Shown here: positions 4,775 to 46,416 of the stretch, piece by piece
Numbering within the stretch: the stretch's first letter is position 1
How the letters are laid out: every line of letters begins with the position of its first letter
From: Escherichia phage MN05
Reading direction: 5' to 3' (one strand)
Length of the DNA stretch: 64,000 nucleotides
Sequence record: NC_070987.1
Notes under the pieces: model-generated
What the model was told of the DNA's origin: nothing
Seen by the model: the letters and a program-made list of their open reading frames with translations, nothing else
The model's database searches: none
Position numbers and translations under genes: made by a program

Positions 4775-5298
4775 CAGTAGACAGTGTGACTGTTAGCCCT
4801 GCGTCTTTAGCAAGTCTAGAGACAGGGGCTACTCGGCAGTTCACTGCAAGCGCGGAGAAAAGTGATGGTTCTACCGAAACAACTGGCTTTACTTGGTCAG
4901 TGACAGGAGGTGGTACTATCACTCAGTCGGGTTTGTATACTGCTCCGAGTGCGTCTCAATCCACTGATGTATCCATTACTGCAACTTTAGAAGGTGTTTC
5001 TGGTACAGCAACCATTTCTGAAATTGCTGACCCTGCTCCTACTATTGTAGCTAAGGGTCCAATTACTGGTAAAACTGGTGGTTCTTCCACTAACTTCACT
5101 ACCATGTTTACTGTAACTAATTCTGCTGCTGCGGATTACACGTTTGTTGTGATTCCTACAGAAGCCGGTACAGTAAGCGCCGCTGGTGCGTTAACCTTAG
5201 ATGCTACTGCAAGTGGCGAAGTTACTGTTCAAGCAAGTTTGACAGATGACCCGTCCATCAATGCAACATGCACTTTTACTGGTGTAACACCTGCTTAG
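4696..5298 (+). CDS. capsid C-terminal extension in -1 frame carrying a bacterial Ig-like (Big_2-type) domain
   Basis: -1 frame open across capsid 3' end; shifted reading gives ...AAG-K-GGG-VTVDSVTVSPASLASLETGATRQFTASA, a Gly linker followed by an Ig-like motif; listed ORF 4786..5298 starts at GTG without RBS. Confidence 0.5.
   Translation, partial: DGSWSASPQPICFRRSVHCCGKGGGVTVDSVTVSPASLASLETGATRQFTASAEKSDGSTETTGFTWSVTGGGTITQSGLYTAPSASQSTDVSITATLEGVSGTATISEIADPAPTIVAKGPITGKTGGSSTNFTTMFTVTNSAAADYTFVVIPTEAGTVSAAGALTLDATASGEVTVQASLTDDPSINATCTFTGVTPA
4756..4762 (+). other. putative -1 programmed ribosomal frameshift slippery heptamer G_GGA_AAG
   Basis: X_XXY_YYZ heptamer in capsid frame 12 nt before capsid stop; -1 frame is open from 4696 through 5298. 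Confidence 0.5.
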
Positions 5299-39409: not shown

Positions 39410-39594
39410 TCAGTAAGAGACCACAGAGAGTCACCTATGTTGGCATTGTCATTCCTGATGAGGTCTTTGATTTTATCAACATCAGTTAAGTGAGTCACAT
39501 TCAAAATATCCTCAACATCCGGGGCATATTTAAATATGGCAACAATACTGTTGTGATCTTCAGCATATCTTTCTAGAACATAAACTACGCTCAT
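39394..39594 (-). CDS. hypothetical protein
   Basis: 66 aa ORF. Confidence 0.3.
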   Translation of the reverse strand: MSVVYVLERYAEDHNSIVAIFKYAPDVEDILNVTHLTDVDKIKDLIRNDNANIGDSLWSLTEWTLW

Positions 39595-39914
39595 GCGACG
39601 TTAACCTCTTTATGAAGTCTGTAAACGGCTGTCGCCATACAAGCAACAGCCTCATTGTGTGGGAGATGCATACCTGTAGAACCATCCCAATCTCTGAACT
39701 CATTGTCAAAGACTCCGGTAGGCTCTGGATACAAGGCTTGCAACTCAACCAAATCATTAGCAACTTGTTGCCATTTATCATCAGACCAGATAGGGTCATC
39801 CAACCAGTAATACAAATAGGAATGGATGATCAATTGCCTTCTATGCCGATTAATTACTTCAGCGGGACTTATCTCACTTCCATTTGAAGTCCTAAATGTA
39901 TTACTGTCAATCAT
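39591..39914 (-). CDS. standalone NAD-dependent DNA ligase domain Ia-like protein
   Basis: 107 aa; RHRRQLIIHSYLYYWLDDPIWSDDKWQQVANDLVELQALYPE parallels the LigA N-terminal Ia motif (R..L..H.YLY..D.P.I.D..YD.L..EL..L...PE). Confidence 0.45.
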   Translation of the reverse strand: MIDSNTFRTSNGSEISPAEVINRHRRQLIIHSYLYYWLDDPIWSDDKWQQVANDLVELQALYPEPTGVFDNEFRDWDGSTGMHLPHNEAVACMATAVYRLHKEVNVA

Positions 39915-41128: not shown

Positions 41129-41344
41129 TTAATATTCCTTGATTGGAGAAACTACAAAACCACCCAGAACTGACATATGGGATTGTCTTAAACTTACCGT
41201 ATTGACAGGCATTGGTACAACTTTTAAAGCTTTCTTGAAACGACGAGCCTCTTTTCTGGTCTTAAAGTTTTCTGAAAAAGGGACTGGATTGTCCCCCACG
41301 TAATACACCACTGTCCAGAAATATTTAATCTTTTCCATATTCAC
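41129..41344 (-). CDS. small protein, paralog family B
   Basis: 71 aa; FKTRKEARRFKKALK and C-terminal ...KEY resemble the tandem trio at 43200-43815. Confidence 0.4.
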   Translation of the reverse strand: MNMEKIKYFWTVVYYVGDNPVPFSENFKTRKEARRFKKALKVVPMPVNTVSLRQSHMSVLGGFVVSPIKEY

Positions 41345-41616
41345 TTAACACCTAAAGCTGTGTCCAAAAATGCTTTCAGGTTTGCTTCAGTCTGCATACC
41401 AGAGAGGCTGTAATGTGCACCACTGTTACGATCAGGCACAACGAAAGCAGGGATGCTTCGTACACCATACTTAACAGCTTGCTCACGACCATCACCTTCA
41501 AGGATGTTAATCTCTTCCACTTCTACATCAAACTCCTTAACAACCTTCTCAAAGGTAGGAGCCATTGCTTTACATGGAGCACACTGATCACTATAAAACT
41601 TAATTACTTTACTCAT
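41341..41616 (-). CDS. thioredoxin/glutaredoxin-like protein
   Basis: about 90 aa from MSKVIKF; CAPC redox motif and thioredoxin-fold-like layout. Confidence 0.5.
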   Translation of the reverse strand: MSKVIKFYSDQCAPCKAMAPTFEKVVKEFDVEVEEINILEGDGREQAVKYGVRSIPAFVVPDRNSGAHYSLSGMQTEANLKAFLDTALGVK

Positions 41617-41806
41617 TCTATTCCTTGTTAATAAACAGGTTGATATGACGCTGGGTAGCAGGAACAACAATAAAAGATTTATACTGACCTTTTGCTAGGT
41701 CATGAGCAATCTTCTTTGTCTGACCAAGACCCATCACACAGCCACTAACGATAATGGCATGTGCTTGTAATTCTTCAGGTAGGTTTAGTTTCACTCTTTG
41801 GATCCC

Positions 41807-41992
41807 TTATAGCATACAAAGAATAATAACAAGAGGTAGTGTTATAGCAAAATGTACCAGAACAACACTACCTAGCTTGATAGCTTTAACATCCTCTTCT
41901 GCTGGGTTTTCTTTAATTGCTAAATTTCGAGCTTTATATATAACAGTACCAACTATTAACGACCACACGGCCCACACAATCAGTGAAATCAT
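41807..41992 (-). CDS. small two-TM membrane protein (paralog family D)
   Basis: 61 aa; MISLIVWAVWSLIVGTVIY ... VVLVHFAITLPLVIIL. Confidence 0.4.
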   Translation of the reverse strand: MISLIVWAVWSLIVGTVIYKARNLAIKENPAEEDVKAIKLGSVVLVHFAITLPLVIILCML

Positions 41993-42001
41993 ATCAAACC
42001 C

Positions 42002-42181
42002 TTATGCAGTCAGGAGGTGAAGCAGGAATGGGATAACAACAGCTACGATAACCATGATAGTTGATGCTGTTTGAATCTCACCTTTCTTATCAGGAGTTTC
42101 TTCAATAAGCTTACCAGAAGCCCAATAAATACCACCACCAATAAAGATAGCCCAAATACCCCATACGATTGCTGATAACAT
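42002..42181 (-). CDS. small two-TM membrane protein (paralog family D; hand-translated)
   Basis: 59 aa MLSAIVWGIWAIFIGGGIYWASGKLIEETPDKKGEIQTASTIMVIVAVVIPFLLHLLTA, paralogous to 41807..41992; replaces listed ORF 42043..42315. Confidence 0.45.
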   Translation of the reverse strand: MLSAIVWGIWAIFIGGGIYWASGKLIEETPDKKGEIQTASTIMVIVAVVIPFLLHLLTA

Positions 42182-42241
42182 ATATCTATATCCTTATAAA
42201 TAAGTTCGCCCCACCTCGGGTTAGGAGACAGGGCGGAGGTT

Positions 42242-42820
42242 TTAGTAAGACACGTCACCACTTGAATGGGACATGTTGCTCTTGACGAAGTAGCAATACT
42301 TGCCAAGACCTTCATTAATTTCTTGAAGCATACTCTGATCGACAGGGTAGGTGGCTAAATCGCCATCAAACTCATCCATCTTCTCAATAATACACATCAA
42401 GGTCATGCACATATCAGAGAGCATACCGTCCATATCCAGATCAGCATTACCCTCTGAGAACCAAGCATGAGAGATGTAGTTAGCTGCTGTAGCATCCACT
42501 TTAACACAGTGGTAACGCATACGTTCAGCAATACGATCTCCTACCTGTCGTGCGTAATCTTCCAGCTCATCAAACATACCATGAACACCCTGAAATCCTG
42601 CACCAGAGACGTTCCAGTGATAGTTTTTAGCTTTGATATGCAAGAGTTCCATGTTAGCTTGTAAGCAGCTCAGGATGTGTTCTAGGCTATTTCCGCTAAT
42701 CATGCCTTGCATCGTTTCAAGGCGAGAGATTGAAAGCTCAGACCGGTCTAACATGTTATATTCTGCACGACCAATCTCAGGTAAATCAAAGACATTCTTA
42801 TGCATTTGGCTTTTCTCCAT
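42242..42820 (-). CDS. Dps/ferritin-like protein
   Basis: LQANMELLHIKAKNYHWNVSGAGFQGVHGMFDELEDYARQVGDRIAERM matches the Dps signature (K..N.HWNV.G..F...H..F.E.Y......D..AER); start taken at an internal ATG. Confidence 0.55.
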   Translation of the reverse strand: MEKSQMHKNVFDLPEIGRAEYNMLDRSELSISRLETMQGMISGNSLEHILSCLQANMELLHIKAKNYHWNVSGAGFQGVHGMFDELEDYARQVGDRIAERMRYHCVKVDATAANYISHAWFSEGNADLDMDGMLSDMCMTLMCIIEKMDEFDGDLATYPVDQSMLQEINEGLGKYCYFVKSNMSHSSGDVSY

Positions 42821-43127
42821 CAAGTTCAACTGAATTAGCAACGTTACGTTCCAGATTGTCAATTACCTGCTGGGTAATTACGATGCAGTTCTGTGGGTCT
42901 ACTGACTTAGAACGCCCCATTTCAGGGTCATACACCTTAACTCGCTTAGCAGTTGAACCTGTAACCTGAAGAACCTTCAACAGATACCCCTGATTACCAA
43001 TAGACCAAGCAACAACATCACGATTCTTGATAAAGCGACCAAGCATATCACGATGATAAAACTGTTGCATCACCTTGGATTTTGTAATCTCTTCAGTGGG
43101 CGGGGCCACTTTACTCAAATCTAACAT
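42798..43127 (-). CDS. hypothetical protein
   Basis: 109 aa ORF downstream of a promoter-like element. Confidence 0.3.
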   Translation of the reverse strand: MLDLSKVAPPTEEITKSKVMQQFYHRDMLGRFIKNRDVVAWSIGNQGYLLKVLQVTGSTAKRVKVYDPEMGRSKSVDPQNCIVITQQVIDNLERNVANSVELDGEKPNA

Positions 43128-43166
43128 AACTCTCTCCTGTAAAATACAAATTCTTATTGTACTCTA

Positions 43167-43200
43167 TATACATTTGAGAGTTATCATATCTACTACCAAT
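43167..43200 (-). promoter_or_regulatory. putative promoter ATTGGTAGTAGATA-N11-AAATGTATA (minus strand)
   Basis: bipartite element with spacing identical to the plus-strand copy at 31861-31894; about 40 nt upstream of the ATG at 43127. Confidence 0.4.
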
Positions 43201-43409
43201 CAGTAGTAAATTACTTTAGACATAAAAGAACCAGTGTTAGGGTCTTCATACCAGCGATGTATGTCAGCGCTTTTTACTATTGTGCCCAGAGTCTTCAACT
43301 GTTTCTTAGCAATACGAGCCTCTTTGCGAGTGTCAAACAATTTGATGCTATCTTTTCTCATGTGTTGCTCAAGATCCCAAACAACATGAATAGCCCACAT
43401 CTTTTTCAT
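43200..43409 (-). CDS. small protein, paralog family B
   Basis: 69 aa; FDTRKEARIAKKQLK ... KVIYY. Confidence 0.4.
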   Translation of the reverse strand: MKKMWAIHVVWDLEQHMRKDSIKLFDTRKEARIAKKQLKTLGTIVKSADIHRWYEDPNTGSFMSKVIYY

Positions 43410-43618
43410 TAGTAATGCACCTTTCCGCTGATATAAACACGACCAGAAGAATACTCCTTGGCCTTATGGATACTGATACTATTGACCACGTCACCAGTAA
43501 GCATAGTCTTTTTAAAATCTCGAGCTTGTTGGCGAGTGGGTAGTGCAGTCATAGTCATGCCACCTGATGCCCACTTAATCTTTGCTAACCAAAATTTTCT
43601 CATAGTGATTGGTCTCAT
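43409..43618 (-). CDS. small protein, paralog family B
   Basis: 69 aa; LPTRQQARDFKKTM ... GKVHY; start overlaps the stop of its neighbour. Confidence 0.4.
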   Translation of the reverse strand: MRPITMRKFWLAKIKWASGGMTMTALPTRQQARDFKKTMLTGDVVNSISIHKAKEYSSGRVYISGKVHY

Positions 43619-43815
43619 TAATAATAAACCTTGCTGTTGGCAAAAAGAGCACCTTCGTTATTCACGATAGCTTTACCAATACTAACCTTGTTAAACCTAA
43701 AAGTAGATTTGTATTGATTTTTGACCCTACGGGCGTGCTCTCGAGTATTAACAAAATCTACAGCTACTAACTCTCCAGTCGTGTTATCATGTACACGAAC
43801 AATCCACTTTTTCAT
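43618..43815 (-). CDS. small protein, paralog family B
   Basis: 65 aa; VNTREHARRVKNQYK ... SKVYY. Confidence 0.4.
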   Translation of the reverse strand: MKKWIVRVHDNTTGELVAVDFVNTREHARRVKNQYKSTFRFNKVSIGKAIVNNEGALFANSKVYY

Positions 43816-44018
43816 TTTACTAAACCTTTCATATAATCATAAAGAGCATTAGAAGCTTTACCCCATTCAAGGTGCTTCTTATCCATATAACTCTTACAGG
43901 TTTCTTTACTGCTTTCATCACAAGTATCAAATCGATGACAGGCTCGACCAAATACCATGGCTTTTAACTGAACATCAGTAGTTAGATATTTAAGTTCTTG
44001 AAACTCTTCTTTAGTCAT
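43812..44018 (-). CDS. hypothetical protein
   Basis: 68 aa ORF. Confidence 0.3.
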   Translation of the reverse strand: MTKEEFQELKYLTTDVQLKAMVFGRACHRFDTCDESSKETCKSYMDKKHLEWGKASNALYDYMKGLVK

Positions 44019-44561: not shown

Positions 44562-45860
44562 TTAGTTATTTGTTTCTACGTCAAAAGAGATTCCACGACC
44601 CGCCTCATCGGCAAACCGAACTGTACGGGTTTGAGGTTCTAATATTTCAGGGTTGTCAGCAACAAAGCGATCAGCGAGACTCTGGTTGACAGTCTCAGCG
44701 AGTTCCCCATGAGAAGGAATATCAAAATCACCAACAGCGAAACCCTGACCAGAGAACTGACGTGCACTAACAGTCAAACCATTTGATTGACCATTAGAAC
44801 GTCTAGACAACCATCGCCCAAATGAATCGCTAGTAACACCAAGAGCTTCTTCAAAAGATGTTCTCCGGGTAGAGCTTAGGTTTCGTGCTTCGTTTGCTCG
44901 ACGTCTTGCAGGGGCTACAAACACCCCTTCAACTGCATTGTGCCGATTAGGTTCATCTTCTCGACCAAGGAGATCTCCTCCTGTATTGGTTGTTAAGTTT
45001 GTCAACCCTTCAGACCAATACGCACTAATCTGACTAGATCCATGAACACTTGACATTAACTGGATTTCTTCATAAGGGATTCCAAAGAATCGACTCATGT
45101 CTTGGTCAACACAATATTGAGGACTTGCTGTGTCGCCAATAAGAGATACTTGACCTTGGTTATTAACCAGATCCCTGACCATCTGAGGTATAGGTTGTTG
45201 CCGAGCATGTGCCATATAATGAAAAGCAACTCCCGGGGTTTGGAACCTTAACACTTGTGAGTTAGGCCACTTCTTGTGGACATATTTAATCTCTCGAGCA
45301 GTCACAACCACTGGAATTGGAGAAGTCATAGCCAAGTATCCATGAACGGTCATGAATAGCTTATCAAGAGTCATAGCACCACGACACATCATAGGAAAAT
45401 TATCTAGAACCTCTTCGATAGAGGTGGGATAGTTAAACATGAATTGGATTCGCGTTCCATGCCACTGAAATTCAATGATATCAGTGAATGTTAATTGAGA
45501 AGTTCCTGCATATGGCTCATCTGTAGCTTCAGCAAGGAGAGACGAATACTCAATATCTTGTGACTCAAGCCACTCTTTCACATTGCTTTCAAGTTCGCTC
45601 CCAAGAGCTTGCCAACGGCCCACTGAAGTGAAAGTGTTTTGTGTTCTTGGTGTTTGCCCTCTGACGATAAAGATATCAATGTCGTGCGGAGCTATGTTAT
45701 TAATAACAGCATCACGAACAGCCCCACCAGTAATGATAGGGCAAATACCGTCTGGAATCAAGTTGTTGTCAATTAATTGTTCAATGAAGTGACGACCAAC
45801 AGTGATATCAGGTTGTTGAGCAACCTTATCTTCAATTTGGTTAATCGGGATAACAATCAT
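44562..45860 (-). CDS. nucleotidyltransferase with CCA-adding-enzyme/poly(A)-polymerase-type head motif
   Basis: about 432 aa from MIVIPINQ; ITGGAVRDAVINNIAPHDIDIFIV matches GGAVRD-x9-DxD of class II tRNA nucleotidyltransferases; remainder without recognisable motifs. Confidence 0.5.
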   Translation of the reverse strand: MIVIPINQIEDKVAQQPDITVGRHFIEQLIDNNLIPDGICPIITGGAVRDAVINNIAPHDIDIFIVRGQTPRTQNTFTSVGRWQALGSELESNVKEWLESQDIEYSSLLAEATDEPYAGTSQLTFTDIIEFQWHGTRIQFMFNYPTSIEEVLDNFPMMCRGAMTLDKLFMTVHGYLAMTSPIPVVVTAREIKYVHKKWPNSQVLRFQTPGVAFHYMAHARQQPIPQMVRDLVNNQGQVSLIGDTASPQYCVDQDMSRFFGIPYEEIQLMSSVHGSSQISAYWSEGLTNLTTNTGGDLLGREDEPNRHNAVEGVFVAPARRRANEARNLSSTRRTSFEEALGVTSDSFGRWLSRRSNGQSNGLTVSARQFSGQGFAVGDFDIPSHGELAETVNQSLADRFVADNPEILEPQTRTVRFADEAGRGISFDVETNN

Positions 45861-45861
45861 T

Positions 45862-46416
45862 TTACATTTTCCAATATAATGAAGGTGGGTCGTAAGGGTC
45901 AAATCCTGTGAGTTCACACAAGTATTTATAAACCTTAACAGTTAAGTTAACGTCCTGTTCACAGTAAGTAAACATATCTTCAGTGAAAGCATCCCATGCT
46001 TCCTCTTGCTCACCGTAATCTCCTTTAAGTTCCTCTAAGAACTCACCCCATTGCTTCAAGCCGTGACCTCTTGGGCCATGTCTAGGGTCACCTTTCGGAT
46101 ACTCAGGACTGTCACCAATACGGTCAGGTTTAAGATATCGACTAAGACACAAGGTGTCGAAGACGTTAAAACGATATTTAATCAGATTGGGATACATCTT
46201 CTTCAGAGCTGGTAAGTCGAAGTCAATAATGTTATGACCCACGAGCACATCAGCTTCTGTAAGTTTACGAATCCCATCTTCAATTTGGTGAGGCCGATAG
46301 CCCCACCTTTCACCAGTTTCAACATCGAAGATGTAAATACACCATACTTTAGTTATGTCATCGTACAGTGCATTACTCTCGATATCAAATGCAAACACTT
46401 TCTTTTTCTTTACCAC
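45862..46416 (-). CDS. DNA polymerase 3'-5' exonuclease domain (T7 gp5 N-terminal-like), separate gene
   Basis: 184 aa; [11 protein letters not shown]...YRP...[12 protein letters not shown]...FDTLCLSRY...[15 protein letters not shown] parallels the T7 DNA polymerase N-terminal exonuclease region. Confidence 0.75.

Follow-up and report, generated by a model that had tools for sequence, protein, structure and literature searches.

What does a phage do with four diverged copies of one small basic protein? The question is raised by a 64,000-nt stretch of the genome of Escherichia phage MN05 (sequence record NC_070987.1; this whole stretch is hereafter called the window), in which an earlier note, made from the sequence alone, had proposed a family of four proteins of about 65-71 amino acids (aa), three of them encoded in tandem. 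The source phage is a phiEco32-like Kuravirus. The four open reading frames (ORFs), which we denote A, B, C and D, are present in the ORF listing at exactly the coordinates claimed, all on the minus strand (Table 1), and B, C and D are gp69, gp70 and gp71 of phiEco32. We find that A, B, C and D are homologous, anciently duplicated members of one small family.

Four members of one family

When pairwise Smith-Waterman scores were compared with those of 2000 composition-preserving shuffles, four of the six pairs stood clear of the shuffled background (z scores of 7.3 for A-B, 5.4 for A-C, 8.8 for B-C and 8.9 for C-D), whereas A-D (z 2.2) and B-D (z 2.8) were individually not significant. The earlier note had named similarity no better than that of shuffled sequences as grounds for abandoning the family, and the comparison gave no such grounds. 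Furthermore, all four proteins match phrog_4939 over essentially the whole profile of 67 positions (E values of 3.8e-12 for A, 1.7e-28 for B, 3.6e-28 for C and 1.2e-27 for D). Profiles built from three orthogroups, with all orthologs of the fourth removed, were also run on the 780 ORFs of the window; each omitted gene was found at E 6e-7 to 1e-9 (5.9e-7 for A, 1.6e-8 for D), the next-best ORF had an E value of at least 0.15, and no fifth member of the family was found in the 64 kb. At the DNA level, only the 36-nt stretch that encodes the common motif is still alike among the copies (61-72%), which implies that the duplications are old.

A chance likeness of unrelated short ORFs that happen to share a basic composition would accommodate A-D and B-D, the two pairs of six that are not significant against shuffles. 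However, the probability of this explanation is negligible, and it is ruled out by the scores of the other four pairs (z 5.4-8.9), by the match of all four proteins to a single PHROG at E <= 4e-12 and by the leave-one-out recovery of each gene at E <= 6e-7 with no other ORF below 0.15. In addition, B and C, the two members that were modelled, share a predicted fold.

That fold was obtained with AlphaFold2 from the family alignments, at predicted local distance difference test (pLDDT) scores of 87.8 for B and 88.0 for C. In both models, the topology is beta-beta-alpha-beta-beta with a single helix of 11-13 residues (residues 28-40 in B), and each protein of the family is accordingly predicted to be one domain of about 65 aa, in which a four-stranded antiparallel sheet carries the single helix on one face. 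With a ratio of nonsynonymous to synonymous substitution rates (dN/dS) of 0.25-0.35, ORFs that are preserved across 97 phage records and two confident models of one topology, the genes are coding and constrained.

The motif TR(K/Q/E)(E/Q)AR..KK, which had been taken as common to the four proteins, is present in all of them, except that in D it ends in KN and not in KK. The proposed C-terminal ending KV.YY/KEY has to be relaxed further: the real ends are IKEY (A), VIYY (B), KVHY (C) and KVYY (D), all of which are tyrosine-terminal. Conservation and charge were assessed on 40 diverse members that span about 75% sequence divergence. Among these, W5, R28 and R32 are invariant, T27 and A31 each occur in 39, the terminal tyrosine (Y69) in 38 and K35 in 37. 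All 40 are basic, with isoelectric points (pI) of 9.5-11.1 and net charges of +5 to +12; at pI 9.8-10.6, the four window copies bear out their description as small basic proteins. R28, R32 and K35/K36 occupy positions i, i+4 and i+7/8 of the helix, with small or hydrophobic residues at positions 31, 34 and 38 in between. As judged from this spacing, A31, position 34 and L38 are expected to point towards the sheet, which would leave R28, R32 and K35/K36 as an exposed basic ridge. Within orthogroups, variation clusters in the beta1-beta2 hairpin, in the end of the helix and the helix-beta3 loop, and in the beta3-beta4 turn, whereas the beginning of the helix, the I-H-K strand and the C-terminal end do not vary.

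Distribution, slots and rate of evolution

The family is shown to be confined to phiEco32-like podophages. A word-indexed search of 5.8 billion proteins returned 92 clusters, all of 64-87 aa and falling into four orthogroups, and when 1.84 billion representatives were searched exhaustively with an HMMER profile (E <= 0.001, clusters at 50% identity), only 28 clusters were returned, all of them stand-alone proteins of 65-79 aa. The members found by sequence come from phiEco32-like phages and similar metagenome contigs, together with gp116 of Aeromonas phage LAh_8 (E 3e-9). Foldseek comparison with the viral models of BFVD matched only uncharacterised phage proteins, from phiEco32-like and 7-11-like phages, Salmonella SE131, Cronobacter GAP52 and CsaP_009, and Aeromonas LAh_8. 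A tblastn search of the phage collection with two divergent members gave no match, and a profile scan of the loci of 7-11, GAP52 and Proteus phage P59 found no member near the genes for dCTP deaminase (DCD, gene dcd) or ThyX (thyX). At the nucleotide level, a 4.2-kb region of the window has 97 matches among phage records at 80-99% identity, all in Escherichia or Shigella phages that belong to the Gordonclarkvirinae (Kuravirus, Nieuwekanaalvirus and Suseptimavirus).

The genes have a fixed address. The leftward cluster runs from primase/helicase through exonuclease, nucleotidyltransferase (NTase) and DCD to the array D-C-B, and on to gp68, Dps, thioredoxin (Trx) and ThyX; correspondingly, in phiEco32, gp71-gp70-gp69 lie between dCTP deaminase (gp72) and gene 68. 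Copy A is found in the next stretch, where the order is gp68, Dps, small membrane proteins, Trx, A and ThyX. The family profile was run on 12 Gordonclarkvirinae-type loci and on five metagenome contigs of greater divergence. None of the 12 related loci lacks B or C, which are adjacent to each other and just upstream of gene 68 and behave as conserved components, not as optional cargo. D occurs in six loci and is absent from EcoN5, ES17, SR02 and the metagenome contig L006, in which an HNH homing-endonuclease gene follows dcd, as well as from SU7. A occurs in five loci, with orthologs in 172-1, Paul, KBNP1711 and EcoN5; it is absent from phiEco32 and SR02, where the slot between Trx and thyX is empty, and from SU7, EP335 and ES17, where that slot holds an HNH gene, as it probably does in N1203. 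Two loci carry, between gene 66 and Trx, a fifth and divergent subtype (MKKWSVVCVD...KIYY; 66 aa) that the profile matches at E about 1e-3. Two copies precede thyX in contigs L019 and L020, three and a half copies, one of them truncated, follow dcd in L023, and the number of copies varies between 2 and 4 or more.

Across these loci, D is missing where an HNH gene follows dcd, and A is missing where one precedes thyX; SU7 lacks D although no HNH gene follows dcd there. A second allele class exists for DCD itself; it is found together with a downstream HNH gene, and its identity to the window protein falls to 58%.

The presence of HNH genes in the A and D slots of several relatives, the truncated copy in L023 and the failure to detect the proteins in the proteome of phage SU10 would all fit dispensable filler ORFs of no specific function, maintained through duplication and recombination near the sites where homing endonucleases insert. 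We nevertheless regard this explanation as very improbable, given the purifying selection on all four genes (dN/dS 0.25-0.35), core residues that stay invariant over about 75% sequence divergence, the confident predicted fold and the universal retention of B and C.

The address also suggests a link with nucleotide metabolism. Members directly follow dcd in four divergent contigs (L005, L017, L019 and L023) and directly precede thyX in L006, L019 and L021, the last of which has a gene order of the 7-11 pattern, and the Aeromonas phage LAh_8 member lies one gene from thyX. Such placements could be expected if the proteins acted as helpers or regulators of dTMP-pathway enzymes, with dCTP deaminase partnered by the tandem copies and ThyX by the solo copy. 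However, because gene order is conserved group-wide, the linkage carries little information, and phiEco32, SR02, SU7, EP335 and ES17 possess thyX without copy A. Moreover, no member was found in the scanned dcd-to-thyX stretch of 7-11 or in its equivalents in GAP52 and P59 (which have dcd and no annotated thyX), and the enzymes are 94-99% conserved as compared to about 50% for the paralogs, a disparity that is hard to reconcile with a tight complex. An enzyme partnership therefore appears improbable.

The contrast with the neighbouring genes is general. In the closest relatives, the flanking DCD, gp68, Dps, Trx and ThyX proteins are 94-99% identical to those of the window, and over 11 loci they are 74-99% identical, whereas the paralogs span 48-99% (B), 48-98% (C), 52-97% (D) and 53-59% (A). 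By the Nei-Gojobori method, dN/dS is 0.25-0.35 in the paralogs and 0.05-0.09 in the flanking genes, except for Trx (0.20), so that the paralogs have 3-6 times the value of four of the five flanking genes. Alleles are combined in mosaic fashion: relative to the window, 172-1 has D at 97%, C at 86%, B at 58% and A at 53% identity, KBNP1711 has D at 52%, C at 53% and B at 97%, and allele B1 is paired with C alleles that are only 53% identical to one another. Since B and C alleles are so freely reshuffled, a heterodimer in which the two would be obligate, co-evolving partners is disfavoured, and we set it aside. The family thus is constrained and yet changes several times as fast as its neighbours do, and it undergoes recombination and shifts in copy number. 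The earlier description of the family as diversifying holds in this comparative sense, as measured by the identity gap, the elevated dN/dS and the 2 to 4 or more copies; it does not extend to positive selection, which is not demonstrated because dN/dS is well below 1.

Candidate ligands of the basic ridge

The reading that we tentatively favour, as plausible though short of probable, is that the family consists of non-enzymatic polyanion binders for which nucleic acid, through its RNA or DNA backbone, would be the likeliest ligand. Under this model, the putative basic ridge of R28, R32 and K35/K36, capped by T27, would combine with the high positive charge to anchor the protein to the polyanion; the hypervariable beta1-beta2 hairpin and helix-beta3 loop would set the specificity of each paralog and allele; and occupancy of the target would, in the replication phase, shield some transaction of nucleic acid or modulate it. 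Catalysis is not suggested because a domain of 65 residues has no known catalytic motif and no cofactor site. Nucleic acid is favoured over other polyanions because the charge is universal across the family, because paralogs that otherwise have little in common all keep the ridge and because the genes are embedded in the replication cluster. As to this setting, the assignment of the genes to a replication/early region stands with respect to the replication and nucleotide-metabolism cluster, and the sources are divided on the timing: the whole leftward cluster has been assigned to the middle expression class (PMC9965538, PMC8948821), whereas in the SU10 study CDS 69-125 were counted as early from the position of a promoter upstream of CDS 68 (PMC4281155).

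Several points weigh against binding of nucleic acid. The sole similarity that is related to nucleic acids is a non-significant RRM-like match to CELF1 (E 0.1), and basic surfaces can equally bind acidic proteins. Exposure of the ridge is inferred from helix periodicity only, not from coordinates, and the invariant arginines and the terminal tyrosine could be purely structural, for example through a salt bridge to the C-terminal carboxylate. Fast, mosaic evolution and a changing copy number would be less typical of nucleic-acid binders than of proteins that interact with those of the host. Finally, the family proteins are not among the 34 proteins detected in the SU10 lysate proteome, which include gp68, Dps, Trx and NTase (PMC4281155), although for Lys/Arg-rich proteins of about 8 kDa such an absence is weak evidence.

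Some of these same features, namely evolution that is much faster than that of the flanking genes, mosaic alleles and a copy number of 2 to 4 or more across three slots, would be expected of counter-defence or host-takeover inhibitors, each paralog blocking a different host protein (a restriction enzyme or another immunity factor) while duplication and allele shuffling track host variation. The restriction of these small stand-alone proteins to one phage lineage and the grouping of variable residues in loops also suit such a role. Furthermore, the Gordonclarkvirinae have been reported to be remarkably resistant to restriction-modification (RM) without a known restriction inhibitor or modification, with the NTase and dcd being suspected (PMC11990801). 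Inhibitors would fit this unexplained resistance, and the suspected genes, those for NTase and DCD, immediately precede the array. Nevertheless, B and C are found in every locus examined, and their place in the replication module is fixed, which is not typical of swappable anti-defence cargo; the proteins are strongly basic, as opposed to the acidic DNA mimics Ocr, ArdA, Ugi and p56; and a basic ridge that is invariant between paralogs of just 25% identity suggests one ligand that is shared and does not change. In the same direction, dN/dS is below 1, genes of the middle region would come late for blocking restriction of incoming DNA, and neither the Foldseek searches of PDB and BFVD nor the other searches matched any characterised inhibitor. 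Taken together, these considerations leave the inhibitor role possible but rather unlikely.

A synthesis of polyanion binding and counter-defence can be conceived, in which these small basic proteins would form a class of their own, new to science, coating nucleic acid or blocking enzymes and thereby aiding the RM resistance of the Gordonclarkvirinae, their diversification mirroring that of host nucleases and the array forming one genome-protection module with NTase and dCTP deaminase. We mention this scenario as a distinctly improbable one.

The interest of the locus depends on which of these readings holds. Much of the host-interaction biology of phages that still awaits description resides in small, multi-copy genes that evolve fast and are restricted to one lineage, and the present family goes beyond a random ORFan in combining a confident predicted fold and an invariant, putatively exposed basic ridge with variable loops and a conserved address by the genes for dCTP deaminase, NTase and ThyX. 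Proof that the proteins protect nucleic acid or inhibit a nuclease of the host would contribute to an explanation of the RM resistance and supply a new binder scaffold; should they be ordinary regulators or dispensable, the result would be routine. We consider the family a reasonable, albeit unproven, candidate for the question of RM resistance in this group and, overall, a modest lead.

Gene layout, neighbourhood and known counterparts

The genes of the array are tightly packed (Table 1). Overlap of start and stop codons had been noted for two of the tandem genes; it is real and extends to both junctions of the array, D/C and C/B. D is further coupled by ATGA to the ORF upstream of it, and the GTG of A overlaps the thioredoxin stop codon as GTGA. 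The conserved C-terminal Lys-Val codons (AAGGT) are located 9 nt upstream of the next ATG in the array and look like a ribosome-binding site of the next gene; in the record of phage Paul, ribosome-binding sites are annotated at the corresponding AAGGT positions. Two starts may differ from those listed. A may start at the ATG at 41338, which would give 69 aa (database orthologs of A start with MEKIKYF or MKKYW), and C may start at the ATG at 43603, which would give 64 aa; many C orthologs begin at the equivalent ATG, and the extra N-terminal MRPIT is predicted by AlphaFold2 to be disordered.

The ORF upstream of D encodes 68 aa, has no family match and is another variable small gene at the B-C-D hot spot. 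It occurs in 172-1 and Paul and is absent from phiEco32 and EP335; KBNP1711 has an ORF of 63 aa at this place, a counterpart by position only.

Downstream of B, two promoter-like elements imply that B, C and D are the last genes of a unit that also carries primase/helicase, exonuclease, NTase and dcd. In phiEco32, six gp36-dependent promoters (consensus tAATGTAtA) have been mapped, one of which is located upstream of gene 68 (PMC8948821, PMC4331800), and a promoter at this place is also given in PMC4281155. A strong terminator-like hairpin directly after the Dps gene suggests that gp68 and Dps may form a short, separately terminated unit.

Several other neighbours deserve comment. Beyond the hairpin lies another tandem pair of paralogs, 33% identical to each other (BLASTP E 2e-10), which encode small, hydrophobic, probably two-helix membrane proteins; phiEco32 has a single gene (gp66) here, and 172-1, KBNP1711 and SU7 have two. 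The 451-aa nucleotidyltransferase is a homolog of phiEco32 gp73 with no Pfam match at E <= 0.01, and a faint match to Gad2 (anti-Gabija) is on record for a relative. What is annotated as DNA ligase in relatives is, in the window, a stand-alone NAD-ligase Ia (Nlig-Ia) domain of 107 aa (E 3.6e-35) and not a complete ligase. The window also encodes one tRNA.

Table 1. Coordinates of the family genes, their motifs and junctions, and neighbouring or related features (window positions unless a contig is named)
Feature	Position	Strand	Basis or remark
Paralog A	41129-41344	-	71 aa from GTG at 41344; alone between thioredoxin gene and thyX
Paralog B	43200-43409	-	69 aa; phiEco32 gp69 ortholog; last gene before the gene-68 promoter
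Paralog C	43409-43618	-	69 aa; phiEco32 gp70 ortholog
Paralog D	43618-43815	-	65 aa; phiEco32 gp71 ortholog
Motif A, FKTRKEARRFKK	41231-41266	-	Translation
Motif B, FDTRKEARIAKK	43302-43337	-	F-x-T-R-x-x-A-R-x-x-K-K, at start of the single helix of B
Motif C, TRQQARDFKK	43508-43537	-	Translation
Motif D, VNTREHARRVKN	43717-43752	-	Translation
C/B junction, TAATG	43405-43409	-	Stop and start codons overlap by one base
D/C junction, TAATG	43614-43618	-	One-base overlap, like C/B
ORF upstream of D	43812-44018	-	68 aa
Promoter region closing the B-C-D transcription unit	43167-43210	-	Two elements; 72-nt spacer after B
Sigma70-like element, TTTACT-16-TATGAT	43210-43183	-	Sequence match
Middle-promoter-like element, AAATGTATA	43175-43167	-	Matches phiEco32 gp36 middle-promoter motif tAATGTAtA
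Dps/ferritin-like gene	42242-42805		
Terminator-like hairpin	42207-42235	-	11 pairs (7 G-C)
Small membrane protein genes (tandem pair)	41807-41992; 42002-42181	-	61 and 59 aa
Nucleotidyltransferase	44562-45917	-	451 aa
Nlig-Ia domain protein	39591-39914	-	107 aa
tRNA-Arg	62778-62853	-	Anticodon TCT
Fifth family subtype	L014 (SR02) 4913-5110; metagenome contig L006 7514-7711		Profile match; absent from window
HNH homing-endonuclease genes	L004 5786-6277; L012 2324-2833; L014 2791-3300		Slot after dcd or Trx-thyX slot
HNH homing-endonuclease genes	L015 5358-5840; L016 2324-2833, 5192-5662		Slot after dcd or Trx-thyX slot

How does the family compare with known systems? Foldseek found nothing significant in PDB (best E 0.44); Pfam-A gave best scores of 10-13 bits against cut-offs of 25-27, with no recurrent family, for the four window proteins and all 40 members; and the PADLOC profiles of defence-system proteins had no match at E <= 1 for A, B, C or D. 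Profile searches of PDB sequences gave Escherichia coli YiiS (PDB 2k3i) at E 0.078 in one case and the RRM of CELF1 at E 0.1 in another, matches that are not significant and mutually discordant. The YiiS alignment, made with a 29-member profile, covers residues 23-60 of that protein and the strand-helix motif that it shares with the family (FFATREEAESF in YiiS); with no significant match in either sequence or fold, membership in the YiiS family is rejected. The CELF1 match covers a beta-alpha-beta unit. However, the RRM has the topology beta-alpha-beta-beta-alpha-beta, as opposed to the beta-beta-alpha-beta-beta with one long helix of the family models, we noticed no RNP1 or RNP2 motif in the family alignments, and no Pfam RRM was found in the 40 members; accordingly, the RRM is rejected as well.

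Ocr, ArdA, Ugi and p56 are acidic DNA-mimic inhibitors of restriction or of uracil-DNA glycosylase. The present proteins resemble Ugi, the phi29-type p56 and Ocr/ArdA in being small stand-alone phage proteins made before the late genes, and p56 has a weak, non-significant Foldseek match to the family model (E 0.7, TM score 0.4-0.5). The charge of all 40 members, +5 to +12 at pI 9.5-11.1, is the opposite of what this class displays, and we therefore do not place the family in it.

The closest known system is phiEco32 itself. Its gp69-71 (YP_001671814-16) are orthologs of B, C and D with 97%, 86% and 83% identity, respectively, and the gene order, the TAATG coupling and the position between dcd and gene 68 all match; phiEco32 differs in having neither a copy A beside thyX nor the 68-aa ORF upstream of D. 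A literature search, beyond whose reach the primary phiEco32 papers lay, found no description of gp69-71. The genes are thus already known as catalogue entries, annotated as hypothetical proteins in phiEco32 and as phrog_4939 (PHROGs v4) without an assigned function, and families of small phage proteins that are lineage-specific, present in several copies and quick to evolve are of a familiar kind, so that this one would not surprise a specialist. What is new here, as compared to these entries, is the proof of paralogy, the predicted fold, the invariant basic motif, the slot structure with its HNH interplay and the contrast in evolutionary rate between the family and its neighbours.

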